The notes beneath the pieces were generated by a model, which did no database searches, was not told the origin of the DNA, and saw only the letters and a program-made list of their open reading frames with translations. From NCBI GenBank assembly GCA_032718475.1, contig JAUCBJ010007105.1:15234-79233 (forward strand): DNA of 64,000 nucleotides, read 5' to 3'. This DNA comes from Nemertoderma westbladi (taxonomy: Eukaryota > Animalia > Xenacoelomorpha). This document shows, one piece after another, positions 21,961 to 62,759 of this stretch (the stretch's first letter is position 1; every line of letters starts with the position of its first letter). The position numbers and the translations under genes are program-made.

Positions 21961-22379
21961 GTAGTCTTTGTTAGTATTACCAATAATATGAGATATACAA
22001 CTGACAAATGAAAAAAAGTAGAATAAAATGAATAAATAATGACAATAAAATAGTAACTATTATATAAATTATTATTGTAGTTTATACTTATCCATGCAAC
22101 AATGTTGTCGTTCAAAAACAAAAATTAATTTGAAAAGCTGAAAAATAATTAAATATGTAAACTTAGAGATAAACTAGAAATCAAATATATAACCAAAGGA
22201 TGCTTATGTATTTATATTCCACTGTGTAGTGTGTATGATGAATTATTTCACTATAAGGTAGCATTTGTAGTTTAACTTTAACGTAAAAACTTTTGAAAAT
22301 CCGACGTATTTTGATTAAATTACAGTAATGTAATATGCCTATTCATATTTGTACACATAAAACCCTTAGGTACTCTCGT

Positions 22380-22447
22380 GGCGTAGTGGTCAGATGGTTA
22401 AGGCGTTGGTTACATTACGTAGGTTACGAGTTCGAATCCCAGTCGGG
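22380..22447 (+). promoter_or_regulatory. tRNA-like Pol III A/B-box module in the LTR (second copy 37296-37363)
   Basis: GTGGTCAGATGGTTAAGGCGTTGG resembles the D-arm region of tRNA-Ser/Leu; B box GAGTTCGAATCCC; no complete cloverleaf. Confidence 0.6.
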
Positions 22448-22494
22448 AAATTTGTATTTTGGGGCCATTTATTTTCGTGTGGTGCTAATTGGTA

Positions 22495-22740
22495 GGCCAA
22501 TGAGAAGCGTACAGCGTAGCGAATGATGAGCCAGGCCAATCATAGGGCATAAATTATCTTATTGCTCAAATGTGAGGCAGTGGAAAATTCTGTTAGGATT
22601 CCATGTCCCAGATTAGTGTAAGGGCTGGACTGCGTTGAACGATGAGCTGGGCCAATCATAGGGCACGAAGCACTTCATTGCTCAATTGTGAAGCTGTGGA
22701 AATTTCTGTTTAGTTTCCATGTGCAATTTCTAGTATAAAA
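22495..22740 (+). promoter_or_regulatory. LTR Pol II promoter: CCAAT boxes and TATA
   Basis: Three GGCCAAT sites, two within a ~115-bp direct repeat (ggccaatcatagggca...attgctcaa.tgtga.gc.gtggaaa.ttctgtt), then TATAAAA at 22734-22740. Confidence 0.7.
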
Positions 22741-25458
22741 GACCGGTTTGCCTTCGGTTATCACGTTATTATCACCTTATGTTATGTCACTTCTTAGCAC
22801 TTTGTAAAACTCTTACTTTAGTTTCCATTTAGTTTATTTCGGTTTCTTGTTGAAACTTTATTTGATAAATCCTTTTGTAAAACTGTAAATATACTGCAAT
22901 TTCCTGACATGTTTTCTTTTGGTCCGACTTCGGGACAGCCGAACACCAGGGAGATGGCAGCCTAGACCGTTAGGCCGTAAGCAACGCAGGGAAGGGATGT
23001 CCACAACACGCTAGCGCCCACATTTGGATTGACCGCGCACCCCCTTTGCCCCTTCGAAATGCTCAACTTGCTATGCAGCGCCCGCTTTGTGAGAAAGGTA
23101 AGACTTTGTTCGACGCCCTTGCCCGCCGTAAGACCTATAGATCAGGGTAAGCGTGACACCGCACTGGACGCCGCAAATTTAGGATCAAATAATTATATCC
23201 AGACACCCCCCCTTTGTCAAGTCCTACGAACCCCTGGGTTAACCTGTACTTCCTACAGGTGCGAACTATTGCCATTCGTCAGTACGCGAGTACATATTAG
23301 GTACGGACAGCATATGTTCCATAATTTAGTGAGTCGTAGCACTGACTGTTTGGTACCGGTTCGCTTTGTAGAATGTACATTAGTACCCCCCCCCCCCCCC
23401 CCCTGTCTGGAGTTAGCTATTTGATCAGGCAAGGAGCATTTCTGCTACCGGCACACTGCTTGGCCTAGGGAGGTTTATTAATATCCTACCGCGCCTTGCC
23501 ACGTACTGATAGGTATTGCTGCTAACTACCGCAGCAACAAAGTTCTAGAATTAAATTAGTATACCAGATCAGCTAACGTACGGTAGCGATTAACCCCTAT
23601 TCTTATCTTACAACCAGAATCTGGTATTAGTGCCGATCACGGGTGTAGTTACTAACACTGTGGTTGCCCATTGGGTTGTGGATAGGAAGGAGAGAGCTTT
23701 GACGTCATTCGTGAGTATAAAGTTCTACAAACGCGACTAGTTTATTTTAGTAGCTAGCGCACGGTATCATTTTAGTCAGAAAATCACTAAAACCTAGTAA
23801 AAGGAATTACACGAAATTGTTTTATTTGTAACACACCCACACACACACGCCCTAAAACATATCGCCCTTAAAGTTCTACTAGCTATAGCGTACTATACAT
23901 TACGTTAGGTGGAAATTATTTGTATTTGTAAAATTAGGATCTGATTTGATTGCGGCAAGATAAGGAGTATTTCACTTTCGTTATTAAACTGTTGTTTGTC
24001 TGGACAACGGTATTGTTACATTTAGGCCTGACCCTTTAGACTGATTTCGTACAGGGGGATCAGTTATCGTTACATTTAGGCACGACCCCTTTTCGACTGA
24101 TTTAGGACTGTCAGTGTTGTTACGCTAGGTCTGTTAACCCACTAGCTCGTATATAAACCATATAAATCACACCGCGGCAAGTTACTGTATTTAGGACTGT
24201 CAGTGATAGTTAGGATTCGCTGCGCGGGGATTGTTTTCCCGTGAGTTTGGTCTGTTACTGTAACTGTACATCTGCCTTACCGGTTAGAGGACAGGTATCC
24301 TTCTGTCTAGTACGTAGGCATTAGACCCGCTCACGTACATAGAATAGATACAAGGCTCTGTTCCTCGCCAGTAGTCGTTTGTGTACTATATCTGTTTGTT
24401 TAGATATCCTGGACTGGGATTTGTTGTCAGATACTGTACAAGCCCGTATACATTACTAGAGTCTCATAGTAAGATACATCGTTACTAGGATCTGGTAAGC
24501 GGTATACTACTGGACCCTTACAGTAGGAAGTATTTATATAAATTAGTATATATAGTATTTCCGCCGTAGCGTATAGTATAGTTTAGAATTGTTAGCTATT
24601 GAAAGTAGGAGATATTTAAAAATTTAAGGTTAGTAAATTTAGTAATTTAGAACGTCCCCTGCTTCAGTAGGCTTTTAGGGTAGCTAGTACTTTCGTATTT
24701 AATATTTGACTAGCTAACAGTTAGTTTGTAGCACTTTGTTTTACGCCGTGTGTGTGCGGTGTTACTTTTCGGTACTTGAAAAGGTACATAGGGTTTAAAG
24801 ACCAATTTGTATCGGTACCTAGGAAGATTTTTCGTAAGCGTAGAAGTAAAACTCTCACCTTCGACCTTTTCAGGACTCAAGGACTCATTTCTGGACCGCT
24901 TCGAGGATTAGACCGCTTTTCGCAAAGTTTGGGAGACAATAAATTCGTCCGCGCCGCCGAAAAACGGAAAGACCCACGTCCGGTTTGTATTTGGGAATTT
25001 GTACGACTGGAAGATCAAAGGAACGTAAGTTTTACGACTCGCGTCGTTCAAACTTAAGAAAGCACAGTAGTACTCAAAATTTGTGGGTTTCACTGTCTAT
25101 TTAGTAGTGTTGTTGGTACATATTTTCCCGTTAGACGTTGCTGTTTGGCCTATTGTTTATACTTGTTGATCTACATTTTGTTAACGTATACCGTTATCTC
25201 ACTTATTCGTACAAATTTAGCCGGTAGGCTAGATTACTACTTATTTTATTATATACCTTGTTAGTTTATTTGTACCGGTTAGGGTATATATATGATGTAT
25301 ATATATATCAAGGTAAGTTCGACATTTGTACATTTCGACATTTTGACATTTCGACATTCTGACTTGTTGATTTATTTGTACCGGTTAGGTAAGTTTGACA
25401 CTTCAACATTCAGACACTTTGACATTTTATTACCCGTACTTGACGTATATAATAAGAC

Positions 25459-31400: not shown

Positions 31401-32391
31401 TTCAAGAGCTAGAACAATGCCATTGAAGTATATGACTGTACCTCGTGGGGAGCTGCAAGCCGGGACGATATCCACCGATATTGTCAGTCTAGTTCAACGC
31501 GAGCTGGAGGCTAACTTGAAGGTCACATATTGGACGGATGCGACGTTGGTACTTTGGTACATAAACAACGAAACATTCGAGTTCAAGACTTTCGTAGCCA
31601 ACAGACGGGCTGAAATACTAGACCGGTCGCTCAAACAAGATTGGCGTCACTGTCCAGGGAAGCTGAACCCAGCTGACATCGCGTCACGGGGGATGCAACC
31701 ACTTGACTTTTGTAAACCGGACAATAAATCCTTTTGGTTTAGAGGACCCGATTTCCTACAGCGACCATCAGACGAATGGCCACCGTTATTCGACGCGACA
31801 ACCAACACCATACCAGAGGGTGCCGAGATAAAACTCGACAAGGTTGTCAAGTCTAAAGCGAAAGCCAACGCCAAGGTCAAGAGGAAAAAAGGACGGACGA
31901 AATCTGATGACCTGGACGCCAGACCTGACATTACGCCAGACGTCTCGCCAGACACTCGACCAGACGCTTGTACGAATCCTTCGCCGGATGTTCCGCGGGA
32001 GATTTCACCAGACGTTTCGCCGGATTGTTCACCAGATTACTCGCCAGATTATTCACCAGAAGAGATACCAGATTGTTCTCCGGATTGTTCGCCAGATTGT
32101 TTGATGGAACTCTCGACAGAATGTCTACCGGACGTCTCACCAGACTGTTCACCAGACATCTCGACCGACTGTCCACCAGACTTTGAACCAGACTTTCTGA
32201 CGGAAGTTACGCTAGACAGACTTTGGGACCGACGACCGGACATTTCGCCGGATGTTCCGCGCTATGTCTCACCAGACGTCTCACCAGACTGTTCACCAGA
32301 CGCTTCGCCAGACTGTCTACTAGACACTCCATTAGAAGACCCATTGGAGCGGACTTTTAGAGACGTACCTAAAGAGGTGAGGTCTCTATAG
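25459..32391 (+). CDS. BEL/Pao Gag-protease-RT-RNase H polyprotein without integrase (2310 aa)
   Basis: Coiled coil, PPKFSGN, three Cys/His knuckles (CWRCMKPGHVRKDC, CSLCGRNHDALLH), AILDSAS protease, YYLPHH, FYVDDGL, HSFSDAS, PRGELQA, YWTDA, NPADIASRG; uninterrupted. Confidence 0.95.
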   Translation: MSDTPHSTRYPPTDYDSCDPDRSTVDEPRRRTRDSTDVTPLASPVPRTEIPETATRGDGRIEDFLTVPQTRSREPDMVSSTGSQENVIRSIGGHMAQITRNLGEGFRVLRELTAPMSRYEFYTLQVRIESRVHASVDKLKGLHELAELRGDNFTQVTIVDKLVSARESLIQFKSVIRLAQQEQFDQLLGESVSDALLQPEEEEELYCLDGRLETLTNFLRRCGVPIDEPEVEPRGTTEVLTTEGSRAYQHPPLDRSFVSVRSDVGNVGDVSRTASGITRQQQEVARRQQVAEEEARHQMAQIAIEGEKQRREDEARIAQLKAQAEFEASEMRRLEEDLARQKAASDARAKLEARQINARLAIQEAELAAQQQDADRREREMQLQFELNRRSRETANAQADLELDARDRSMRSRTGHDLSALDRMEARYRGIQKRIEEGSVGAIDRGEEFVEDYCKRFPQVIPMLKPTTPIKPVFVTKPKEITPVRPTQGSRFVVTEIPQPRATSSPILAGNITSPPTVSRSLLVERDEPAFMTVKQVSKPLQVKPVTCCANPVIYKPTVELNSDVFTRPLTQCLTRPTTSWKACEPTEQRGAVDPRPRRTRPRIIRRTRTRQPPYPDDSDSSSDSESTEREIFRTGAAAAADYKQEERSTNPYIDNPPRETPQQKPTLQPAEAISTNRLAEIMRPVADRLAQIEERLEAQPSDRSRTSVELEQPRQHRPPRREQETRRTPTHREDDPVNNSYRRTTRGRERLDDATEQGRGQLDLVSEIAKFAARHGLPAQQPPKFSGNAKHWRTLVDYVESQIAKCAFTSTEKFNYLLQVLSGEPKRLAETFIGVPDAFELAYDRLYSIYGGNVAMAKSIIEDLCRGGNISRPIDLLRLADEIKNAIGTLRSIGQLEYANAPTVLIRIIGRLHHRLRREWRRIEYQREEAGGLLKHTDVYQLISREAVIETRSNYTDHHIAAEGITVSAPNRTKPFPTNAKAVTYATPTETSKVLTPIGTTQPRQQLPADFVGCSYCERNGRNHSGHKLRACRAFKELGIEERRLQIRSLDSCWRCMKPGHVRKDCPSDDTCSLCGRNHDALLHTTSHTPTRRFRREHPDKAARCDALYKERAPREIRTFYTDCMDQSGSSDEDEEEDDTFYVHAGEEQPSITLLTQNQLKGFSVIPIKITGTRGSKRIYAILDSASSHSYVDEQVADVVTDLSQGKTAQYTVSSMHGKRAIPVTRVKLTLDTLLSKAEHSKEERSLLPVRNLTFAATKDFSNLLGPVPEQSPEDRKYFRHLGIPECPVNYRSIAMLIGTDQFNLHQVWETRPSVITAGNPYACRTPIGWYTRAPIRSLEVSDQEDDVLSTCSLLTNTIDNSPSHSCGPIVRTALRQTCVTNADATDTDVTDLDTTIRTSDLQLLAVDQVVLTTEDLRVVAVDDSMNEDFGRLVSLPKNPKVIDPTHQASTPVVDLGRLASLPIDQEVVKPPHDNSTPTSDTGRLASLPDTLTLATAADEDVDEDHGAVQAALDRLLTERTIQWLEQDSAEPGSYETAMSEQEKRSLNIMRDTIRQTANGHYEVGMLWRNGQPKLVNNYPLALRRLKSIRQRLLRDEMAHMQYNTQLQTYLQKGYAIRMLNPEVTTEQTYYLPHHFVRHPDKPGKVRVVNDCAALYQGMSMNSELMDGPNMNNYLMGVLMRFRQRKVAFTCDVEAMFHQVKALERDRDSLRFLWYPDGNLQLPPETYQMQVRVFGARDSPNCTMYALKQTALDRRDQFDPEVVRTVERDFYVDDGLKSCDTLERATTVAHQLQDCLAEGGFHLTKFASNEPELVNSFDPTDRSGGDLDLDLEPLPTTKVLGLSWDPNTDNFRVRVRSNDQTRPLTKRTCLSTMSRLYDPLCFISPVILHARIILRSIWQAGLEWDDPIPEKLAERWRDWEAQLTFLQDYTIPRVYFPLQTTFPADLELHSFSDASKDGLGVTLYLRRQVTSDSYDVSLVTSRARTMPLKYMTVPRGELQAGTISTDIVSLVQRELEANLKVTYWTDATLVLWYINNETFEFKTFVANRRAEILDRSLKQDWRHCPGKLNPADIASRGMQPLDFCKPDNKSFWFRGPDFLQRPSDEWPPLFDATTNTIPEGAEIKLDKVVKSKAKANAKVKRKKGRTKSDDLDARPDITPDVSPDTRPDACTNPSPDVPREISPDVSPDCSPDYSPDYSPEEIPDCSPDCSPDCLMELSTECLPDVSPDCSPDISTDCPPDFEPDFLTEVTLDRLWDRRPDISPDVPRYVSPDVSPDCSPDASPDCLLDTPLEDPLERTFRDVPKEVRSL
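29740..29930 (+). repeat. Three 78-bp-spaced repeats in the PR-RT linker, each carrying the hairpin motif
   Basis: Motif starts at 29752, 29830 and 29908 (GRLxSLP). Confidence 0.9.
31924..32320 (+). repeat. 12-bp coding repeat (PDxS)n at the polyprotein C-terminus
   Basis: PDVS/PDCS/PDYS/PDIS/PDAS units. Confidence 0.9.
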
Positions 32392-37151: not shown

Positions 37152-39454
37152 TGATGAATTATTTCACTATAAGGTAGCATTTGTAGTTTAACTTTAACGT
37201 AAAAACTTTTGAAAATCCGACGTATTTGGATTAAATTACAGTAATGTAATATGCCTATTCATATTTGTACACATAAAACCCTTAGGTACTCTCGTGGCGT
37301 AGTGGTCAGATGGTTAAGGCGTTGGTTACATTACGTAGGTTACGAGTTCGAATCCCAGTCGGGAAATTTGTATTTTGGGGCCATTTATTTTCGTGTGGTG
37401 CTAATTGGTAGGCCAATGAGAAGCGTACAGCGTAGCGAATGATGAGCCAGGCCAATCATAGGGCATAAATTATCTTATTGCTCAAATGTGAGGCAGTGGA
37501 AAATTCTGTTAGGATTCCATGTCCCAGATTAGTGTAAGGGCTGGACTGCGTTGAACGATGAGCTGGGCCAATCATAGGGCACGAAGCACTTCATTGCTCA
37601 ATTGTGAAGCTGTGGAAATTTCTGTTTAGTTTCCATGTGCAATTTCTAGTATAAAAGGCCGGTTTGCCTTCGGTTATCACGTTATTATCACCTTATGTTA
37701 TGTCACTTCTTAGCACTTTGTAAAACTCTTACTTTAGTTTCCATTTAGTTTATTTCGGTTTCTTGTTGAAACTTTATTTGATAAATCCTTTTGTAAAACT
37801 GTAAATATACTGCAATTTCCTGACATGTTTTCTTTTGGTCCGACTTCGGGACAGCCGAACACCAGGGAGATGGCAGCCTAGACCGTTAGGCCGTAAGCAA
37901 CGCAGGGAAGGGATGTCCACAACACGCTAGCGCCCACATTTGGATTGACCGCGCACCCCCTTTGCCCCTTCGAAATGCTCAACTTGCTATGCAGCGCCCG
38001 CTTTGTGAGAAAGGTAAGACTTTGTTCGACGCCCTTGCCCGCCGTAAGACCTATAGATCAGGGTAAGCGTGACACCGCACTGGACGCCGCAAATTTAGGA
38101 TCAAATAATTATATCCAGACACCCCCCCTTTGTCAAGTCCTACGAACCCCTGGGTTAACCTGTACTTCCTACAGGTGCGAACTATTGCCATTCGTCAGTA
38201 CGCGAGTACATATTAGGTACGGACAGCATATGTTCCATAATTTAGTGAGTCGTAGCACTGACTGTTTGGTACCGGTTCGCTTTGTAGAACGTACATTAGT
38301 ACCCCCCCCCCCCCCCCCCCCTGTCTGGAGTTAGCTATTTGATCAGGCAAGGAGCATTTCTGCTACCGGCACACTGCTTGGCCTAGGGAGGTTTATTAAT
38401 ATCCTACCGCGCCTTGCCACGTACTGATAGGTATTGCTGCTAACTACCGCAGCAACAAAGTTCTAGAATTAAATTAGTATACCAGATCAGCTAACGTACG
38501 GTAGCGATTAACCCTTATTCTTATCTTACAACCAGAATCTGGTATTAGTGCCGATCACGGGTGTAGTTACTAACACTGTGGTTGCCCATTGGGTTGTGGA
38601 TAGGAAGGAGAGAGCTTTGACGTCATTCGTGAGTATAAAGTTCTACAAACGCGACTAGTTTATTTTAGTAGCTAGCGCACGGTATCATTTTAGTCAGAAA
38701 ATCACTAAAACCTAGTAAAAGGAATTACACGAAATTGTTTTATTTGTAACACACCCACACACACACACCCACACACACACGCCCTAAAACATATCGCCCT
38801 TAAAGTTCTACTAGCTATAGCGTACTATACATTACGTTAGGTGGAAATTATTTGTATTTGTAAAATTAGGATCTGATTTGATTGCGGCAAGATAAGGAGT
38901 ATTTCACTTTCGTTATTAAACTGTTGTTTGTCTGGACAACGGTATTGTTACATTTAGGCCTGACCCTTTAGACTGATTTCGTACAGGGGGATCAGTTATC
39001 GTTACATTTAGGCACGACCCCTTTTCGACTGATTTAGGACTGTCAGTGTTGTTACGCTAGGTCTGTTAACCCACTAGCTCGTATATAAACCATATAAATC
39101 ACACCGCGGCAAGTTACTGTATTTAGGACTGTCAGTGATAGTTAGGATTCGCTGCGCGGGGATTGTTTTCCCGTGAGTTTGGTCTGTTACTGTAACTGTA
39201 CATCTGCCTCACCGGTTAGAGGACAGGTATCCTTCTGTCTAGTACGTAGGCATTAGACCCGCTCACGTACATAGAATAGATACAAGGCTCTGTTCCTCGC
39301 CAGTAGTCGTTTGTGTACTATATCTGTTTGTTTAGATATCCTGGACTGGGATTTGTTGTCAGATACTGTACAAGCCCGTATACATTACTAGAGTCTCATA
39401 GTAAGATACATCGTTACTAGGATCTGGTAAGCGGTATACTACTGGACCCTTACA
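37152..39454 (+). repeat. 3' LTR (2303 bp)
   Basis: Preceded by a short purine-rich GGAGCGG (PPT-like) and followed by TSD GTGTA. Confidence 0.96.
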
Positions 39455-50042: not shown

Positions 50043-50399
50043 TTAACTGATATTGCATCACTAGAGCTAATGCCCGAAGAAATCTGTAAACCGGAAGTAA
50101 AGAAGTTTTGGCTTCATAGACCAGACTTTCTACAACGATCGTCACTTCAATGTCCATCGTTATTTGACGCTGCTTCCAACAGTATTCCTAAGGAGGCCGT
50201 GATAAAAACAAACTCCACTGTGGAATCAAAGGAGAAAGCTAAGGTAAGCAAAAAACCGGTCGTTCCGCCAGACTGTCCACCAGATTTTCCACCAGTCTTT
50301 CCACCAGATTTTCCACCAGAAACCTCGCCGTATACGTCTCAAGACGTGTCACTGCACATTTCGCTGGATGTTCCGCGAGATGTTTCTCTTCATGTGTAA
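50043..50399 (+). pseudogene. Fragment of a diverged relative of BEL element 1 (RNase H end plus PDxP repeats)
   Basis: DIAS..LMPEEICKPEVKKFWLHRPDFLQRSS...LFDAASNSIPKEAVIK aligns to DIASRGMQPLDFCKPDNKSFWFRGPDFLQRPS...LFDATTNTIPEGAEIK. Confidence 0.85.
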
Positions 50400-50638
50400 A
50401 GAACTTGTCCAGTTGGCTAAGGAATGGTCGAGGGCTGAAGTTTGGAATTCCTATGATTTGGAGGGAGCAACAAAATCATGTCACTGATTGCTACTTCTGC
50501 ATGGTTCCTCTCATAGCTGGTCACAACAAGAAAACCAAGAAATCTCTTGTGTATCCAAAAGTTCCGTCTGTGATACTTCCAGTAGAGCACTGTGACCAGA
50601 TTCCAGTGCCAGTTCCTATTAGTATCAGTTCCTATTAA
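50400..50638 (+). pseudogene. Chapaev3-like transposase N-terminal fragment
   Basis: FGIPMIWREQQNHVTDCYFCM...YPKVPSVILPVEH motif. Confidence 0.65.
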
Positions 50639-51566
50639 GGAAACTGACGATTCAACAACTGGAACTGACGACGTTTATCATATAGTTGTATATTTTTAGG
50701 TTCATTGTCATTGTCAAAGTAATATAATATAATATAAAATGTAAAATAATTTGTTCTAATAATTAAGGACCTCATAACAGGAAAAATATATCAGCCCAAT
50801 AATTGGTAAGCAGAATATAAATAGGTCAAATTAACAATATATCAGAGGTCACATAAACTTGTTTTGCAACCGACCCATATACTATATTCCACGAATTTAT
50901 GTCAGTTGGTCATGCCGTACCTTCAATGGCTTTAATTAAGTGATGAAATTCCTCCATTATGTAATCTCCTCCCAGGAGACAATGTGCGTGACATTGCCTC
51001 GGTTTGTCTGATGTGTTCCAGAATATTGTCTGTCAAGCGAAGATGTTGGGTGAGATAATATGATGAGATCATCTGATAGGTTGGATGTCTCATGATTGAT
51101 GAAAATTTCACCATGGCTGCCATATTCTTTCTTACCCCAATGTTCGCGGTATTTCAACTTTTCATAACGCGAGTTGAATATTTTTGTATTTTATTTAAAA
51201 TTGATTATTCCGATATTACTACTGGGTGCGGGACCATGGGTTTTGGGCACATTCAATAAACTGGGGGCGATTTATGGGCGAACTTTGGGGCAACTTACAG
51301 GGTACGGGAATAATTTCATAGTTATAAGGGCCAGGGGGGATGGAAAATGCAAGCAGTATTCAGGTTAGCCTGAGTACTATTAGGCCCTGGCCAACTTCCT
51401 GCTGCCTGTAGGGGTGGATTTGGTAATGCGCCAGGCCTAAAGGACAAGGACTGCCCTTAGCGGTCCCTGGCCAACAGCAGCCATTACGAGACTGAAAAGA
51501 ACTCGGACCGCTGACTGCTTGTGTCAGGGATTTGCGACGGGCACCGACGGCCCCTTAGTAGCCAAG

Positions 51567-52333
51567 CCGTTCTGGTTCTCGATGATCGAACCCCGGGGTT
51601 CGTGAGGGGTGGAGCGGACACGCGAACAGGTGGCCAACTAACGACTGCCCCCTGACCTAAGCCGTACTGGTTCTCGATGACCGATCCCTTCGGGGTTCGT
51701 GAGGGGTGGGACGGACATGCGAAAGGGCTGGCCACAGGACAGGTTTGACAAGGACTGCCCTTAGCGGTCTCTGGTCAACGGCAGCTACTACGAGCCTGAA
51801 AAGAACTCGGAACGCTGACTGCTTGTACTGGGATTTGCGACGGGAACCGACGACAGACCCCTTAGCCAAGCCGTTCTGGTTCTCGATGATCGTTCCCTTC
51901 GGGGTTCGTGAGGGGTGGAGCGGACACGCGATGGGGTCGAAAGACAAAGGACTAGACTCGACTAGACTCTACTGGCCTACCGACTGTTCGGAGCAGTTTC
52001 TCGGCTGCCGAAGCGACTACGAGCCTGAAACGGACTCGGAAAGCCTAGGTGGTTGGGTTTCTGTGACGAACCGACGGACCCCTAGCCAAGCCGTTCTGGT
52101 TCTCGATGATCGAACCCTTCGGGGTTCGTGAGGGGTGGAACGGACACGCGAACGGGTCCACCGACACGACAGACTCCTAGCCAAGCCGTACTGGTTCTCG
52201 ATGACCGAACCCTTCGGGGTTCGTGAGGGGTGGTACGGATACGCGACAGAGTCTACCGACTGGACCGACCCTTAGCCAAGCCGTGCTGGTTCTCGATGAC
52301 CGTTCCCTTCGGGGTTCGTGAGGGGTAGAACGG
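51567..52333 (+). repeat. Six ~53-nt structured repeats (kink-turn-like plus cUUCGg hairpin)
   Basis: CCGTTCTGGTTCTC-GAT-GA-Y-CGAACCC-TTCG-GGGTTCG-T-GA-GGGGTGGAACGG at 51567, 51662, 51871, 52091, 52186 and 52281. Confidence 0.85.
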
Positions 52334-52970
52334 ACACGCGACAGGGTCGACCGACACCGACACTTCGGCACTAAGACTGGGACTGAGGGAAAATCTGGGG
52401 AACATTAGGTAGGCTAAAATTCTGAGCGAACAGTGGGTTATTAAATAATATACCGTAGGGATTTATATTATCGTGTATAATTATTGTGAATATTTGGTGT
52501 ATATTGATTTGGGGAAGCCCAAAATTATTCTTAATCAAGGTTCAACAGAGTTCAGTTACATTAAAGAGTATATCCAACTAATGCAGCTTTTTCTCGACCG
52601 CAAACTTGCATCTCAGAAAATATTCCCTCCCCACAATCAATATCCGGTGACTGGCCGGGGCTCGGTGGTCTGTTAAGTCACGTCTCCAGCATCGGCGTTT
52701 TTCCCCCCTGGTGTAGGAATAACGGCAACAAAATTAAGAATAATTAATGCGGTTAATTTTGACACGGTGTCAAAATTAAGGATAATTACGGTCAACTTCA
52801 ACTGGTGGAAGTTGAAAATCCTTCAATACTCTCTACGTGCTTGCCAGCACCCACTACGAGGAAACTCTGGTATTTGAGTTGAGACAAAGTCGTGGTTTAA
52901 TTAATCAGCAAACTCGATCTAACCAACTCGTAGTCGGCAGATCACATATTTGGAGAGTTGTTAACAGGGA

Positions 52971-53162
52971 ATGGAAGTATCGATCACACCCATTGATATA
53001 ATTCAAGTTGAGCCAGGAATCTGGCACGTCGAAGTTGAGGTACAAGGAACGAACGTTGGACGATTCAGGATTACTGTTCGGGTGGTCCAAGCTGAGTACA
53101 ATACCTACGAGGAACTGTTTTACGACATCGCGTATCTAGCCATCGACGAGGCGTTACAATGA
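52971..53162 (+). CDS. 63-aa upstream ORF overlapping the gag start (ATGA)
   Basis: ggaATGG context; protein-like amphipathic pattern; its TGA overlaps the gag ATG at 53159. Confidence 0.5.
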   Translation: MEVSITPIDIIQVEPGIWHVEVEVQGTNVGRFRITVRVVQAEYNTYEELFYDIAYLAIDEALQ

Positions 53163-56100
53163 CAACAAATAACGTATCCGATACCGACGAGATGGATCAC
53201 CATGCAGACTCGGAAACCGACGAGGTACCAAATGTCAAGAACATGACCCGTCGGTTAGGGGCCCTTAAAGGCGGAGTAACCCGAGCGTATCAACGGATGG
53301 AGAAACAACTCAAGGGAGTCAAAACCCCCCTCAATGAGGTACAAACTCAGCTTCAAAGTATCCGAAATATCCTACAGCGGTACGAAAGAATGATACAGGC
53401 GTACCAAGATCTCGTTCCCTCCACCGATCAGGAAAACTACCCCAAGTTGGAAGAACACGTTGTACATCTAGATGGGTTCCGCAAACAACACCGGAGGACC
53501 CTCAGCCTTGTGAGAGGATATGAGGAACAGTACTACAAAAGGGCTGAAAGAACGGACGCGGAATCAGTACGATCCTCCAGCATCAGGACGGCAGTACATC
53601 AAAAAAGAACGGGGTCCGCTAGAAATCAGCACTCCAGCGCTAGGAGCGAGAGATCCGGCTCAGCGCATAGCTCTCAAGGGGGTCAGCCACTCCGAGACCA
53701 ACTGCGAGAACGGAAGGCATTAGCCCTCAAAGCTCGGATGGAAGATGAGTATATTCAACTGCAAGCCGAGCAAGATGTATTAGCCGCCGAAACACAAAAG
53801 CGAGAGGCCGAACAAGAGGTCGAACGACGGGTCGAACAACGCAGACAGGAGATCGAACAACGTGAACAAGAGGCCCAACGAGAGATCGAACAACGTGAAC
53901 GAGAGGCCCAACGGGAGATCGAACAACGTGAACGAGAGGCCAAACGAGAGATCGAACAACATGAACGAGAGGCCAAACAAGAGATCGAACAACGTAAATG
54001 GGAAGCAGAAATGCGTAAACAACACGCCGAGGCCCAAGCGATTCTCACTCACAAAAAGAATGCAGATATTGCGAAACTGGCGGAATACGAGGCCGCACTT
54101 ATAGAACGAGATATTCAACTCTACGAGGACTGGGAAAGGGATATAGATCAGGAATATGAACCAATTCCGATACCGGAGTTAGAAAAGTCATTTACACCAA
54201 CAGCGACGAAACCTCCGAAACTCGAGATCCCGCCTACCAAACAGTCTACGCTATCGGCACAAGCCCCGGTGTTCCATCCCCCACCGGCTACGTTAAAGAA
54301 TGAGGAACCCTATTTCCCATCCAACACCACGACAGCGAGTGTACCCAAGTACGAGCCTGAAAAGGACTCGGAACGGGACGCCACTCCCCGATCAAACAAC
54401 CCATTTACATCAACACCACAAACTCGCAGCCACGTCATTATTAAAACTCCGCCTATCATTGATCCATCAAGTATGGGAGTGAGTGCCAATAACTATAACC
54501 CTCCGAGTCACTCCAGTTCAGACGACGTCAGCATCATCCGGGCGTTGGAGAACCGCCTTGCCATGCCGAAGATGGAGATTCGCACCTTCGAAGGAGATCC
54601 CGTCGATTACCTCAGATTCAAGAAACGGTTCTTTGCGCAGATTGGATCAATGGACATAGCCGACGCACAGAAATTTGTATATTTATCACAATACCTGGGT
54701 GACAAACCACGCAGAATTGTTGCATGTTTTGAAGGAGGTTCTCATGAGGCATACTATGACGCATGGAAAACTCTAGACAAAAGATACGGAAATACCGGAA
54801 CTATAATTAATAAAACTCTAGAGAGACTGATACAGGATGCGGGATCACTAGGGGACCCACAGAACATACAGGAATTCTCCGACTCTATGAAAGATGCCTA
54901 TTATACTCTGAAACCCTTAAATAAAAGAGGACCAGGTGAACAACATTCTAAACCTACGACAGATCGCCTGGAAGTTCCCCGGATGGCTACAAAGTAAGTG
55001 GGCTTATAAATGTGTAGATCTCCGGCGCAGACATCCAGATCGAGATCCTAGCTTCCTTGAAATGTCGGCATTCCTGTACGATATCTCCGAAGCCATGAAT
55101 GACTCGATGTTTTCAAAACAAAGTCTCGCAAAGTTGGACGGAATAGAGAGCAACTCTAGGAGTAAGATAACCCCTCCGAAACCGAGATTCCGCCCCCCAC
55201 CGGTAAGTACGATGGCCATTACCATGGCCGAGGATTCCGACGACGAAGACTACGAGGAACCGACATCCGCTGAGGAATGGGCATGTTATCTCGAGAGTTG
55301 GGCACCCGAAAGGGAAGGCATCACAAATTCCCTGCTCTGTCTCTTCTGTGGGGAGAAACACAAAGTGGAATTCTGCAGAAAGTTTCAGTTCGCCGAACTC
55401 GTCCCAGGCTTCGAGGCGATAATGAAACACCGAGGATGCTTCCGGTGTCTTGGAACAGGTCACTATGTTCGGGAGTGCGACCAAAGATCATGCTGTGCTG
55501 TCTGTAACGACCAACGCCATCACACGCTCCTCCACATCCCCGCGAACTTCGATTTTACTACCCTCCCCTTTCGGATCGAAGCCAGGCGAAGAGGAGAAAC
55601 AAACCACGTCTTCAAAGGAACCCGGACAACCCAACGGAGAGAAACCAACCCGTTTAAAATCTACACCGATACACCACAAGTAACCAATATTTCGGCCACG
55701 ATTAATCTTATAAATCGCCGATACATGGTCTTCGCAAAGGTGATCCCAGTAAGGATCCAAGGAGTCGGCAAATCTTTGACGACACTCGCGTTCCTCGATA
55801 ACGGGTCCGACGGAACCATCATCGACCGGGATTTCCTCGAGCAACTCGGCCTAGAATATGAACCTTGTAAACGGCCCATACAAACCATCACCGATAACAA
55901 AGAAGTAGAGTCCGGGGAGGTGCAACTCCAGATGGAAGGAGTGATGAAGGGCTACGAAATGGCTAAGTTAACCATCAAGAACGCCTTGGTACACACAGAC
56001 CTCCGGGTGCGGTTCCGACAATCAGCCGAGTACGCCCCCCTCATACAATTGGATCGAGACGATGTAGACCTGAGGTGTCCGCAGTTGGACGTGAACCGTA

Positions 56101-59100
56101 TCACCCTACTGATCGGACTTGATACACCGGAACTACACATCCCCACCGGAGATATCGCTCGATCTATAAACCAGGATGATGGATTTTATGCTGAACGAAC
56201 AATAATGGGATGGACACTCTGCGGCATTAAGGAGGAAACTATGGACACCTATACCTACCTTCCTAAATGTCAGATTAAAGAGAATGTAACCTCTGTGGGT
56301 TATTGCTCAGCTTCGGATCTTGACGAGGATTTGTTCCTGGAAACCGAGAAAACCCAATGAGAGATGACGAAATATTTTAATTTGGAAACCCAGGAGTTCG
56401 CGGAAAAGGACGAAAACCCATCCGAAGAGGACCAATATTGTATGGACGTTCTCGACCAGGCCACGTTTAAAGACGGACATTGGTGTTCACCTATGTTATG
56501 GAAGGACCCAAACAAACCAATGGCAAACAACGCCAGCATGGCACTTAGGCGACTTAAAGGGATTCTACGCCGGCTGAATGACCAACCCGAGATAAAGGAG
56601 AAGTATAACACCGTAATCCAAGGATATCTCGATGATGGATTAGCAGAAATGGTACCACGGAACGAACTGCAAGGTGGTAAAAGAACATATTATCTCCCGA
56701 CCCACTATGTAGTAGAAGCCCACAAAGGCGGGAAAATCCGAGTGGTAAATGATGCTGCCGCTATATACCAGGGCGAATCCCTAAACAGTCAACTTTATAC
56801 GGGACCCAACATATATAGCACACTTATCGGCGTATTGATCAGGTTCAGGGAAAACCGGGTAGCATTCACCTGTGACATCAAGGCCATGTTTCATCAAGTT
56901 CGTACATTACCAAGAGACTCGGACTGTCTACGTATCCTATGGACGGATAAAACGCTTACTCAACAGGAGATTAGCCAACTCACGATAAAGGACGTAGACG
57001 TAATGCGTATGGTCGTCAGGATCTTCGGCGCTAAGGACTCGCCGGTAGCATGCAGTGACATGCTAAAGAGGACGGCAACCATGTGCGAAAACGAGTTCCC
57101 TCCAACCGTCATAGAAACCATTCGACGATGCTTCTACGTGGACGACGGATGCGCTGGCGCGGATAATGTAGATGAGGCGTATCAGCTAGCAATGGGGATG
57201 GTAGAATGTCTAAAGAAAGGAGGGTTTCCACTCGTGAAGTTCAGATCCCACGACAAAACACTTATGGAAAAGTTTCCGGAGGACATCCGGCTGGAAAATA
57301 ACAAGATGTATTCGGAGGATGTGGAACATCGTGTACTCGGGATTGAATGGGACATAGAATCAGATGAATTCATCTTCAAATATAAACCCCTACCCAAGCC
57401 TATGACAAAAAGGGGATGTTTGTCGATAAAAAGTGCAATCTTCGACCCACTAAATTTCATATCTCCAGTAACCTTGGCTGGAATGAACCTGATTAAGGAA
57501 ATGTGGATAGAAGGACTGGGATGGGACGAAGAGCTTCCCCCATACCTTAGCGTCAAATGGAGAAAATGGACGGAGCAGCTCGAACATCTACATCTTATGC
57601 GGATACCTAGACCGTTCTTCCTCGATAAACTGCCCACCGATATCTTCCAGCTCCACACCTTTTCGGATGCTTCAAATACCGGAATCGGCGTAGTAACCTT
57701 CTTACGGAGACTAAGTAGCGATGGAAACGGCGATACAAGCTTCTTGTTCTCCAAAGCAAAGACAGTATCCGGGGAATTCGTAGCAACGATTCCGAGACTC
57801 GAGCTACAAGCTGCAGTTTGGGCAGTAAGACAGAATCGCATGGCCATGCGGAACCTACGGATCCCCATAGAATCTCAGCACTTCTGGGTAGATTCGAGTA
57901 TAGTTCTCTATTATCTCCACTCTCCATCACGGCGTCACACCACGTTTGTTGCAAACCGAGCCACGGAGATTAAACAGTGTACCGGCCGAGAACAGTGGCA
58001 TCACGTGAACGGGAAGGAAAACCCAGCGGACTTATCAAGCCGAGGCGCCACCCCAAAACAACTCGGTAAAAGTAAACTCTGGCTTACAGGCCCGGAATTC
58101 CTACGGCAGCCACAGTTGACATGGAGTACCCGATTCGACCCCGAACTCGATAGTGGAAAATACTCCGAGGACGATAAAGAGATCCGTAAAATCCATCGAA
58201 GCAACGCGGTGGAAATTTATAGTTGCCTGACTGAGCCTGCAAAGGACTCGGGCAGGCACTATAACGTCGCGACGATCACTCAACTAGCGGCGTCTTTACA
58301 TCAGTTGATCGAGCGAACCTCATCCATGAGACGGCTCGTCCATCACGTTATAACCCTTCGCAACTTCCTACGGTGGAAAAACAACAAACCGATAGTTCAA
58401 CGGAATATACAAGAACTCATTATTGCGGAGAAGTGTATTGTCAGATATGTCCAGAAAGAAAGTTTCCCCGATGAATGGGAACAACTTAGTGTGGGCAAAA
58501 CGTTGAAACCGGACAGCCCAGTCTACCAACTGAGACCAATGATGGGAGAGGACGGACTGATCCGACTGAATACCCGGATGGCAAACGCCCCGGTCGAATA
58601 TGAGGTTAAATACCCGGCGCTTCTGCCCGGAACGTCGACACTAGCTAAGCTATTAATTCTACAATGTCACGAGGACAACCACCACGCAGGACAGAATTGG
58701 ATTATAGCTAATATAAGACAAAGATATTGGATCACCCACATCCAGCCACTGATCCGGAAAGTGTTGAAACGTTGCTTCACCTGCAGACGTTACCTAGCGC
58801 CACCAATCACCCAAAAGATGGCCGACTTACCAGCCACCCGTCTACAAGCGGATTCCCCACCATTCTACGTCACCAGAGTGGACTGTTTCGGACCGTTCAC
58901 GGTTATTGAACGACGATCCAACATCAAATGCTGGGGAGCCATCTTCACCTGCCTAAGATCTAGGGCAATTTACCTAGATATCGTGGTAAATCTGACACAA
59001 CACGCATTCATCAACGCTCTGCGTCGGTTCGTGGCAAACAACGGGACATGCCGCCACATGTATTCCGATAATGGTACAAACTTTGTGGGAGGAGAAAGGG

Positions 59101-59840
59101 AACTTAGAGAGGCGATCGAGGGATGGTTTACCGATAACACTGCATCCCAAGTCTGGAAGGAACACCAGATACAGTGGCACTTCCAGACCCCCTTAGCACC
59201 CCATACGAGCGGGGTATGGGAGAAACTGATCGACCTAGTGAAACGATCCATGCGCGTCGCTCTAGGCGACACCCGGGTAACCCATGACACCCTCCGCACA
59301 ACATTCTGCGAGATCACGGCTACCCTGAACAACCGACCCATTGTTCCTATCCGCGACGACCCCACAGACCTGGAACCCCTCACTCCTAACCACCTACTGG
59401 GGAGACCCAAAACCCACCTCCTCTCGGAAACCATGTTCCCGGATCCCAACGAGATCGCGAAACATACAAACTGGAAAAAGGCCCAAGCGTTGGCAGCGCA
59501 TTGGTGGAGAATTTGGGCCCAGGAATACCTCATAACCCTCCGGACCAGGAGGAAATGGAACAACACCTACCGGAACGTCGCAGTTGGCGACATGGTGCTA
59601 GTTAAAGAAGATCTCAAAGACCGCGTTCACTGGCCTGTGGCGCGGGTCGTGACCATACACCCAAGCAAAGACGGACTTGCGAGGACTGTGACGATACGAA
59701 CGAAAGCGGGCCACTACCAACGCCCCATCCAGAAGCTGTGCCTTCTTGAAGGCAATGACAGTGGTGATTCTACAAGAGGTGATAAGTTCCCGACTACGGA
59801 TCCTGCTGCAGACATCGGTGACAATGATAAATGCGTTTAA
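53159..59840 (+). pseudogene. BEL/Pao gag-pol with one frameshift (~54925) and one in-frame stop (56358-56360)
   Basis: IRTFEGDP, CLFC, CFRCLGTGHYVREC, CAVC...HHTLLH, AFLDNGSD, FYVDDG, HTFSDAS, IPRLELQAA, NPADLSSRG, VDCFGP, YSDNGTNFVG, GVWEKL. Confidence 0.92.
53849..54005 (+). repeat. 33-bp coding repeat (EIEQREREAQR)x~5 in the gag coiled coil
   Basis: gagatcgaacaacgtgaacgagaggcccaac units. Confidence 0.9.
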
Positions 59841-60109: not shown

Positions 60110-60540
60110 ATGTTGTCCGTTGCGTGCGCAGTTCGGGGCGTAGGCGGTGTAACGAGTCCAGCTGTAGATCTTGGATTGCCGCGCAACACCCCCTCTATCC
60201 CGTTATTCTGGTGGGTCCATGGTGCATCCACATGACTTCGACGATAGAGGGTTTTATGTTTCTCAGTCGCGTTATTCTGGTGGGACCGTTGCGTGGATTT
60301 TGGGGCGTAGGCGGTGTAACGAGTCCAGCTGTAGATCCCAGAATGTTGCGTAACCCATCCCACATGACTTCGTCGACTGAGCTTTATGTTGTTGGGAGTG
60401 TTATTCTGGTGGGTCCCTGGTGCATTCCACGTGACTTCACTCTCAGCGTCTTCATTGTCCGTTACGTGCGCAGTTTGGGGCGTAGGCGGTGTAACGAGTC
60501 CAGCTGTAGATCCCAGATTGCCGCGTAACACCCCTTCCAC
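60110..60540 (+). repeat. Three ~170-bp-spaced repeats in the element 2 3' UTR
   Basis: Identical 36-mer GGGGCGTAGGCGGTGTAACGAGTCCAGCTGTAGATC at 60135, 60302 and 60477; GTTATTCTGGTGGG also occurs three times. Confidence 0.9.
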
Positions 60541-60824
60541 GACAAAGATTAACCAAAGAAAATGATTGAATATAGTTGGAAACGATGAAAAGGATCAGAC
60601 AACTCTACTATAAACCTGAATGATGACGCGTATACTGATGAAAATGAAATGATGCGCACCCTGGTGCTGCGCTTATAACCAATGATGATAGCCGGGGGGC
60701 TATAAACCCAATGATGATGTGGAAATAAATGGTGGAACTAAATGTTGAAATATATGTGGAAATAAATGAAATGAGATGAAATAATAATGAAATGAAAAAA
60801 GACAAAAAAAAGGTATAAAAAAGG

Positions 60825-62735
60825 TCAAAGAAAACCCCCAACCTCCTGTAAATCCTCCCAGATACAGTAGATGATCGCCTTCCCGATGACGCGACGCAGG
60901 ACCTCACCAATACCTATCGGCCTGATGCCCGGGTTCTTATTGAGCGCCAGTAACCGGGCGTTCAGCAGCTTGGAGAGAGATTCGGGTGGAACAACGACCT
61001 GGGCGATCTGTTTCGCCCACTCCGCGATCTGGCTGGCCAACTCGGTCGACTGAGTCCTAAACTTCGTCAGCAGGTGTTTCCACCCCTGAACGTCGACGCC
61101 CGACGGCCCAGCAGCGTTCCCCTTCATCCGGAGTAGGCTAGACAGTATTACTTCTCCATCTATCCCCTCGAAGATGACGCCGTGATGTTCAGGGGCGCCA
61201 GGATACTCTGCTGGGTCGATGAGTATGGACTCATCCGCTGGTTGAGCTGGTGGATGTTTGTCACGTAAAACATCTCTCACCGTCTTCGTGACGCCGTCTT
61301 TGTCGAGAAACGACTCCCCCAACTTCATTGGCGCCCCACGATTAGCCGCACTCAGACACCGTGTGGCTGCTGAGATGTTGCCGCTCAACATGTGGCGGAC
61401 GAATGCCTTCTGTAGAGCGACGGTTTGGGAGGCGGTCTGTCGAGGTTTGGGGAGATGGTATTGTATCACCCGGGCCTCGACCATCAGTTCCTGGAACTGA
61501 CCTCCCTGCCAGCTCACCAGCCGTCGCTGTAAAACACGCCGATGTGTCGCCGTTGTTGAGTTGCGGCTGGGCTTCTGTTGGAGTAAAGCCGGCAGCAACA
61601 TCAACAACGTACCGGCGATGTCTCTCAGTGGATTGTCAGACACAGTTAGGGATATAAGACGGGACATCTCAGTCACTACCTGGCGACCCACCGCCCCCTG
61701 AGGCATCAAAAACAAATTCGATCGCCAGTGAACGATTTCATCGTATGTCTGGTTTATGGTGGAATAAAACTCAGACTTTGGGAATCGTTTCATCCCCCAA
61801 GTAACTTCGCCGGTCTGGGACGTTGCTGTCGATGACGTGGTGGTAGAGGGGCCCGAGGATGACGAGATGGGAGTGGGGCCAACGGAACCCGACGATGACG
61901 TGGTGGAGGTGGGGCCAACGGAACCCGACAATGACGTGGTGGTAGTGGGGCCCGAGGATGACGAGGTGGGAGTGGGGCCAACGGAACCCGATGATGACGT
62001 GGTGGGAGTGGGGCCAACGGAACCCGACGATGACGTGGTGGAAGTGGGGCCAACGGAACCCGACGATGACGTGGTGGGAGTGGGGCCAGCGGAACCCGAC
62101 GATGTTGTTGTGGGGCCAACGGAACCCGACGATGACGTGGTGGAAGCAGGGCCAGCGGAACCCGACGATGTGGTTGTGGGGCCAACGGATCCCGACGATG
62201 TTGTTGTTGGGCCAGCGGAACCCGACGATGTTGTTGTGGGGCCAGCGGATCCCGACGATGTTGTTGTTGGGCCAGCGGAACCCGACGATGTTGTTGTGGG
62301 GCCAGCGGTACCCGACGATGTTGTTGTGGAGCCAACGGAACCCGACGATGACGATCCTATAGTTTGTAACGAGAGGGGGAGACAATCCCGTGGGGTTGAG
62401 GGGACCAGAGTCACGTCCAAGTCTACCAGTGTTGTGTCGTCATCACTGGTAGTGTCGCTGGCTAATGCCGATAATCGCCCCCCATCCTGGGAATAGAAGA
62501 CGGGGGCCGAAACGTCGGGATTGTCACGCACTGGTAGCGGCTGCGACTGATGAAGCGCTCTGGTGTCAGACAATACCGGTGCAACCGGTATTTGTGTACC
62601 AGCTTGTCCCCTATTTCTACAATTATTTTTCCCCCCAGGGGCACAGTTTGTACATAACCTCCCCTGCCGTGCACAAACACACTTGGCGCATCGCCCCGTT
62701 GTCGCATTACAGCTGCAACAAGCCGATCCCGACAT
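60825..62735 (-). mobile_element. CRE-like non-LTR retrotransposon ORF, 3'-truncated within RT
   Basis: Cys-rich N-terminus, YDEIVHWRSNLF..P.GAVG, LQQKPS, LRDKHP, AAGPSGVD..GW, RLLALNKNPGIRPIGIGEVLRRVIGKA. Confidence 0.8.
61835..62350 (-). repeat. 30-36-bp coding repeat (GPTTTSSGSA/V)n
   Basis: About 15 gggccaacggaacccgacgatg units in frame with the CRE-like ORF. Confidence 0.9.
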
Positions 62736-62759
62736 GTCCTCTATCCTCTATATCCTCTA

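Follow-up and report, generated by a model that had tools for sequence, protein, structure and literature searches.

We describe a modular RNA leader ahead of the gag-pol reading frame of a BEL/Pao retrotransposon in the xenacoelomorph Nemertoderma westbladi, in which nine modules of two kinds, A and B, follow each other in the order B A A B A B A A A. The six A modules carry a near-invariant core on covarying outer stems, and this core bears the sequence signature of a kink-turn (k-turn). The leader is a real, likely transcribed and previously undescribed structure, and we infer that its protein partner is Snu13/15.5K and that binding would switch the core between two pairing registers. The window, by which we mean the whole stretch of DNA that was analysed, comprises 64,000 nt (contig JAUCBJ010007105.1 of assembly GCA_032718475.1, forward-strand positions 15,234 to 79,233), and positions are counted from its first letter (Table 1).

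Table 1. Positions of the leader modules and of the transcript and coding features around them; z, folding z-score; bulge, position of the 3-nt bulge.
Feature	Position	Strand	Remarks
TATA-like box (TATAA)	51323..51327	+	28 nt before likely start site
Likely capped transcription start, C/A initiator	51351	+	Adapter joint in one run
5'-terminal 10-bp hairpin of transcript	51355..51378	+	Predicted
Module B1	51452..51541	+	Long stem, UA/GA internal loop, CGAG/CUCG hairpin capped by C-UGAAA-N-G; z -4.79, 0/200 shuffles
Module A1	51549..51630	+	K-turn-like core, bulge 51581, loop without TT, 3b:3n U.U; z -2.31
Module A2	51647..51727	+	Bulge 51676, 3b:3n C.U, weakly folding; z +1.15
Module B2	51758..51844	+	z -1.08
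Module A3	51856..51938	+	Bulge 51885, 3b:3n U.U; z -2.11
Module B3	51986..52071	+	Apical core as in other B modules, outer stems differ; z -2.00 for 51950-52072
Module A4	52076..52159	+	Bulge 52105, 3b:3n U.U; z -2.82
Module A5	52171..52254	+	Bulge 52200, 3b:3n C.U here, C.A in most other copies; z -2.95
Module A6	52266..52349	+	Bulge 52295, 3b:3n C.U; z -1.14
Gag part of BEL/Pao ORF	53159..54997	+	First ATG 53159, DUF1759; frame change near 54921-54997
Zinc knuckles and aspartyl protease	54921..56360	+	Ends at in-frame TGA 56358-56360
RT, Pao peptidase A17/RNase H, integrase, DUF5641	56361..59840	+	Best relative 37% identical
Three C modules behind the ORF	60113..60537	+	36-nt invariant core on covarying long stems; design like A, motif different

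The assignment of the host element to BEL/Pao, made in a first-pass annotation from the sequence, is correct. Downstream of the array lie, in the domain order of this group, Gag (DUF1759, CCHC), an aspartyl protease, reverse transcriptase (RT), the Pao A17 domain, integrase and DUF5641. The ORF carries two C-x2-C-xn-H-xn-C zinc knuckles, and an integrase zinc finger was also found. The closest of 904 relatives is the one given in Table 1, and the named relatives come from corals, echinoderms, molluscs and fish. A frame change and an in-frame TGA interrupt the copy in the window, no LTR pair was found for it there, and it looks truncated. The family is abundant and polymorphic in the host's public sequencing runs, with 4,026, 1,101, 78 and 3 contigs on 51150-52650 in runs X1, X3, X4 and X5, respectively. 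Contig-run depth cannot rank parts of the element, so no LTR end or short RNA was positioned from the fall in X4 depth behind ~52480 or from the ratios of DNA depth.

The array likely forms part of the element's transcript, as had been supposed. In run X4 (labelled 'DNA?') cover is absent before 51351, while X1, X3 and X5 extend upstream, and an X4 contig is joined at this position to a 17-letter match of the SMARTer template-switch oligo (its 3' end), accompanied by one extra G. The oligo sequence is printed in PMC9245221, and according to the accessible part of that paper an untemplated G marks a capped 5' end. The genomic base preceding 51351 is C, which makes the site a C/A initiator, and the TATAA box of Table 1 is 28 nt upstream. 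A contig end alone is no evidence of a start, whereas an adapter joint is, and this joint, the single adapter-joined start among the X4 loose ends listed, rests on one run. From the joint and its extra G we infer that 51351 is likely a capped transcription start and, with it, that the array is probably within the capped RNA. Counted from this likely start, seen in one run, the modules extend from +95 to +1000 and the six bulges from +231 to +945, which places the array in the 5' part of the genomic RNA, where a packaging signal is looked for. The leader measures 1,808 nt to the gag ATG and contains 12 upstream AUGs, and X4 lists no spliced joint in 51150-52650.

Six repeats had been announced for 51567-52333, and six are there: a pattern scan returned six core matches at up to three mismatches where 0.15 were expected, and 0 of 100 shuffles got to six. 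The cores start at 51576, 51671, 51880, 52100, 52195 and 52290, and the interval 51567-52333 marks the outermost bases of the CCG/CGG stem from the first copy to the last. The letter-by-letter description of the repeat holds apart from the pair above the G.A tandem, the outer-stem change from CCGTTC/GAACGG to CCGTAC/GTACGG is present, and copy 1 does lack the TT of its loop. Because the same 2-nt loss occurs in the public runs, at ~1-2% of summed depth, this absence is not an assembly slip. The repeat was drawn too small, however: the module is larger, with an outer stem and two internal loops, and the supposed variable spacers hold three structured B modules.

Each A module is ~85 nt long. 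A closing stem is followed by two internal loops (UAG/GA and CAAG/ACAC) and by an 8-bp stem that carries the core, and a 7-bp stem topped by a cUUCGg loop completes the module. The closing stem differs from copy to copy, while the core barely changes. In the alignment of the six A modules, 91.4% of 162 cells are paired and 3 of 27 pairs are changed on both sides, values that column shuffles attained in 4/500 and 30/500 trials, respectively. Controls with slid partners paired in 32-55% of cells, a lenient comparison because the structure was derived from the same six sequences. For the closing stems of A3-A6, the best partner of every 5' arm is the 3' arm of the same module. Two A modules fold no better than shuffles, 100-nt windows at fixed steps gave no strong folding signal, and when the leader is folded in full, A2 and A3 engage neighbouring sequence rather than forming their local hairpins (P 0.12 and 0.0). 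The three B modules have a common apical core, CGAG/CUCG capped by C-UGAAA-N-G, and we take this cap to be T-loop-like.

Some contigs of the public runs depart from the arrangement in the window. Loose ends in X4 and X5, inspected by eye, show the B core (51784-51815) between unrelated, mutually complementary flanks, so B also occurs in another stem context, and its core is likely common to another repeat family. A contig of organism B in X5 runs from A1 straight into A6 (51586-52301), which leaves it a single A module, and low-depth joints in X1 and X3, skipping 221-714 nt, drop other subsets of modules; these differences in module number may be real copy-number variation or a library artefact.

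The first-pass annotation had singled out GATGA and GTGA as invariant. Both are constant among the six window copies, but so is nearly the whole core, in which 5 of 37 columns (52099-52135) vary; the outer stem and linkers have 20 variable columns out of 27. The constancy of these letters is therefore not specific evidence and cannot discriminate between the two folds considered here. As to other genomic copies, in which free variation at the GA/GA positions had been named as a refutation, GTGA carries variants at its T, which reads A in 5-11% of summed depth and G in 7-14%. This T is 52129, position 3n, where k-turns allow variation. The G and A beside it have no listed variant, although the variant table omits differences among the window's own copies (52095, 52110), so that a missing row is not proof of invariance. 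The variants listed across four runs are at 52111, 52113, 52114, 52129 (two alleles) and 52139, together with the 2-nt loop loss. In A5, 52224 T>A makes up 93-96% of depth in X1 and X3 and gives C.A at 3b:3n.

On balance, the chance that the six cores are k-turns is somewhat better than even. In all six, the sequence provides a 3-nt bulge G-A-U followed by G1b.A1n and A2b.G2n, with C:G at -1b:-1n and a C-G pair at 4b:4n. The U.U reported at 3b:3n stands in three copies, and the other three have C.U. By the k-turn rules in the accessible part of PMC8191799, C:G at -1 and C at 3b are favourable and 3b:3n may be any pair. The available portion of PMC1874613 adds the preferences of individual proteins: Snu13p prefers a purine at L2, a protruding U and, above the tandem, a non-Watson-Crick pair such as U.U, with helix I length irrelevant, SBP2 requires a purine-pyrimidine pair at position 4, and L30 favours a protruding A or C. 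Agreement with the k-turn sequence rules and the Snu13/15.5K preferences extends to 6/6 copies, and since the cores fit Snu13p rather than SBP2 or L30, Snu13/15.5K is the best-fitting partner. A search with k-turn descriptors had been proposed at the outset. A strict descriptor derived from these rules found nothing but the six modules on either strand of the window; it matched 9 of 20,000 shuffles of A4 and, in 77 other BEL loci totalling 546,217 nt, a single place. A looser descriptor matched 95 of 2,000 shuffles, and the window has 57 matches to it. The common A5 variant keeps a non-Watson-Crick pair, C.A, and deprives the rival register of its closing G.U.

That rival is a slipped register in which GAGGGG pairs with UUCUCG shifted by two, leaving a 5-nt AUGAY bulge and drawing the GA into C-G and U-A pairs. 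Nearest-neighbour folding makes it the predicted minimum in 6/6 cores, 5.4-6.0 kcal/mol below the k-turn register, with an energy model that leaves k-turn contacts, ions and protein out of account; the fold of the alignment also gives the slipped register, and the predicted probability of the pair closing the k-turn is at most 0.001. In the k-turn register the C helix has four pairs, C-G, U.G, C-G and U.G, followed by a 2-nt bulge. A gap of 5.4-6.0 kcal/mol would weaken protein binding. The six-copy alignment contains no covarying pair that separates the two registers, all positions involved being invariant, the population variants are compatible with both, and the six copies are a single evolutionary event. 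A k-turn-like sequence in SRP/Alu RNA made the G.A pairs but not the kink, according to the accessible part of PMC5579392. The repeated hairpins of the other BEL element in the window are not k-turns, so k-turns are no general need. On these C-helix observations, we file the array cores as candidate k-turns only.

Retroviral and LTR-retrotransposon 5' leaders carry packaging and dimerisation hairpins, and the HIV RRE and CTE-type elements are export elements. The array resembles them as a structured cis-element on full-length RNA with candidate multivalent binding and a strong 5'-end hairpin, and differs from the retroviral leaders in consisting of nine tandem modules of two kinds. We know of no k-turn array in retroviral or LTR-retrotransposon leaders or in RRE/CTE elements. 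With the standard k-turn of the Kt-7 type and the U4 5' stem-loop, as presented in the available portions of PMC8191799 and PMC1874613, respectively, the array has in common the 3-nt bulge, the G.A/A.G tandem, C:G at -1, a purine at L2, U at L3 and a short capping hairpin. Unlike these, it has a weak C helix with a competing Watson-Crick register, and it comprises six copies in an mRNA-type leader, embedded in larger modules and interleaved with a second type. By this analogy, the array would act as a sixfold Snu13 site of the U4 type. Synthetic tandem k-turn/K-loop switches likewise place several L7Ae-family sites in a 5' leader (PMC3711428, accessible part); the array differs in being natural and further from the cap, and its host partner would be nuclear Snu13, not archaeal L7Ae.

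Other RNA classes with similar cores fit less well. Box C/D RNAs and 15.5K-bound K-loop RNAs (bioRxiv 10.64898/2026.08.03.742641, accessible part) likewise have RU-GA-U / U-GA, as in three copies of the array, and multiple cis sites on a host transcript. The array, however, reads AUGAYC/GUGA rather than RUGAUGA/CUGA, is without a guide and is not terminal to a small RNA. The initial reading of the core as a k-turn of the box C/D type did not stand, since AUGAYC and GUGA occur in 6/6 copies with C-G at 4b:4n; we rejected the box C/D motif, the array showing neither RUGAUGA/CUGA nor a match to any Rfam snoRNA family at E up to 10. SECIS elements, which are bound by SBP2, share the AUGA/GA core and a non-Watson-Crick pair above it, and the element has an in-frame TGA. 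In contrast to them, the array has an upper helix of 7 bp, a UUCG loop, no apical AA and a Py-Pu pair at position 4 (C-G at 4b:4n), and it lies 5' of the ORF; a Py-Pu pair at this position disfavours SBP2 (PMC1874613, available portion). With the apical AA, the long helix II, the purine-pyrimidine pair and the 3' UTR position all lacking, and no Rfam match, SECIS was rejected, and because these features fail, selenocysteine read-through of the in-frame TGA was dropped. Hammerheads, including permuted types, were compared on the basis of the accessible part of PMC10085705 and rejected, CUGANGA being absent on both strands of 51351-52450.

We propose that the array docks Snu13/15.5K through protein-switched k-turns, forming a multivalent coat that marks full-length RNA in the nucleus, and we put this at not quite an even chance. 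The free RNA would rest in the slipped register predicted by folding, with the 5-nt AUGAY bulge and the GA buried. Binding of Snu13/15.5K, which would occur on the nascent RNA, would pull the core into the k-turn register and so make each module a protein-dependent switch. By analogy with known systems, several Snu13 molecules on one RNA might stabilise it in unspliced form. Scanning translation, which would have to pass 12 upstream AUGs in the 1.8-kb leader, would then be disfavoured relative to export and packaging. Tertiary contacts made by the B modules could lock the array. Snu13 is nucleolar (PMC1874613, available portion), so a role in the nucleus is likelier, with full-length RNA kept unspliced and passed on for export and packaging. 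When several L7Ae sites stand in a 5' UTR, their repression of translation adds up, and it is weaker far from the cap (PMC3711428, accessible part); the first core of the array, at +231, is distant in this sense. In the accessible part of bioRxiv 10.64898/2026.08.03.742641, 15.5K-bound K-loops hold introns in a dose-dependent manner and in proportion to their number. The most complete form of the proposal, in which six-fold protein-switched k-turns braced by T-loop modules recruit Snu13/15.5K and control splicing, export or packaging, as the first natural k-turn array in a retroelement, is more tentative and in our estimate clearly under an even chance.

The predicted fold also suits a different reader. 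If the slipped register is kept, the array could be a family-specific packaging or dimerisation signal read by Gag, with six copies raising avidity so that self-RNA is picked among BEL families. Retroviral packaging signals sit in the 5' leader, and the ORF has the two C-x2-C-xn-H-xn-C knuckles; folding of the six cores and of the alignment predicts the slipped register, with its 5-nt bulge and G.U/G.G-rich helix, as the minimum each time, the whole core is invariant, and the same design recurs twice in the window, in the three C modules behind the ORF and in the sevenfold 20-nt hairpin of the other BEL element. A Gag signal leaves the strict k-turn/Snu13 match of the loop letters (9/20,000 shuffles) unexplained, however, and the G.U that closes the slipped register is lost in most A5 copies. 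We regard recognition by Gag, the main rival, as somewhat unlikely, and it is compatible with docking of Snu13. The length of the leader (1,808 nt) and its 12 upstream AUGs could also point to an IRES-like or shunting platform, whose A and B modules recruit the ribosome or bypass the 1.8-kb structured leader. UA/GA internal loops and T-loop-like hairpins recall IRES domains, and X4 lists no spliced joint in the region; yet the array ends 800 nt upstream of the gag ATG, the transcript appears capped and an Rfam IRES match is absent at E up to 10, and we think such a platform improbable.

Two further explanations address the tandem arrangement itself. Recent duplication of a DNA element, be it an enhancer or a neutral repeat with incidental hairpins, would agree with the variation of module number and order among copies at low depth (joints skipping 221-714 nt), with the two modules that fold no better than shuffles and with the 100-nt windows that lack a strong signal. 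It sits badly with the compensatory changes in the outer stems, with closing stems in A3-A6 that pair best with their own partners, with the cUUCGg loops, and with the concentration of variable columns outside the core (20/27 versus 5/37), and we give it little probability. Tandem invariant cores on covarying stems are typical of retroelement ribozymes, and GAUGA-stem-GA resembles hammerhead domain 2, which would suit a tandem self-cleaving ribozyme of unknown class, as in Penelope-like and other retroelements. Such a ribozyme is nevertheless highly improbable, given that CUGANGA is absent from both leader strands, that no Rfam ribozyme matched 50500-53200 at E up to 10 or the window at gathering score, and that one adapter-joined start is found among the X4 loose ends listed.

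How BEL/Pao elements sort full-length RNA between translation and packaging, and how their unspliced RNA leaves the nucleus, has been little studied, and this locus offers a compact cis-element for which a likely start is mapped and a candidate partner can be named. Should Snu13 bind, the array would link a mobile element to snoRNP assembly and would be a natural counterpart of the synthetic L7Ae switches, with a k-turn gated by a register shift. The element would then control the fate of its RNA through a core protein of snoRNAs, in a host-protein analogue of Rev/RRE. If Gag binds instead, the repeated motifs, three across two elements of the same genome, would suggest family-specific RNA barcodes for packaging.

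Rfam gave no match on the array at E up to 10, four weak matches lying upstream of it, none over the window at gathering score, and nothing meaningful behind the ORF. Pattern scans for homologues of the array in viral contigs gave 2 and 1 matches, read as unrelated coding sequence, and a loose scan gave more than 120, taken for chance. The B motif had 0 matches in metagenome contigs, the A motif 0 in prokaryote genomes, and viral contigs contained no protein relative of the element. Among 77 distant BEL loci there was no match to a module-A covariance model at E up to 10 (best blastn E 0.075), which is a weak negative since only 24 of the 77 hold at least 1,000 nt before the first long ORF; a search for direct repeats upstream of 14 of these loci gave none like the array. 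A diverged homologue able to separate the two folds was found in none of the viral, metagenome, prokaryote and BEL sets, and a search for long-range pairing between the leader and the 3' end produced arms at chance level only. The expectation that such an array had not been reported for an LTR retrotransposon agrees with the literature searched, which was chiefly openly accessible: no k-turn array in a retroelement appears in work that treats k-turns together with retrotransposons or in work on Snu13 with retroviral RNA, including the accessible part of PMC6533054, and none is described in work on BEL/Pao leader structure.

The window holds further repeats and elements. The three C modules have a GUA/GUA internal loop and a 10-nt apical loop and no Rfam match. 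In the other BEL element (element 1), one 20-nt hairpin occurs seven times on the plus strand, at 27200, 29752, 29830, 29908, 35765, 36568 and 36665; four copies are inside its ORF, three of these at 78-nt spacing with differing lower stems, and three are behind it. This hairpin is a candidate dispersed packaging or export signal. The LTRs of element 1 (22236-24522 and 37152-39454) are 2.3 kb long and 99% identical, with the target duplication GTGTA; ~1.8 kb of the LTR lies behind the TATA box, and no TGG-type primer site follows the 5' LTR. The ten bases after the 5' LTR (24523-24532) were seen by eye to be complementary to 23248-23257 inside the LTR, which may reflect self-priming or chance; 23248-23257 also reads like a splice acceptor. 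A tRNA-like sequence, likewise noticed by eye, lies in the U3 of element 1 (~22366-22450) and at the matching place of the 3' LTR, and neither ARAGORN nor Rfam called it.

Behind the array-bearing element, 60609-60720 (+) contains three repeats of the form TATAA(A)CC..AATGATGA, one of them then followed by CTGA like a box C/D pair, with a weak SNORD44 match (E 4.2); these are more likely promoter-type repeats of a truncated 3' LTR. On the minus strand, 60825-62747 is a truncated frame of 640 codons with a coding tandem repeat of 30-36 nt and no Pfam match, and its end motif is presumably RT-like. A 12-nt Pro-rich coding repeat is common to the BEL remnant at 50043-50399 and the end of the first ORF of element 1 (~31700-32330, plus strand).
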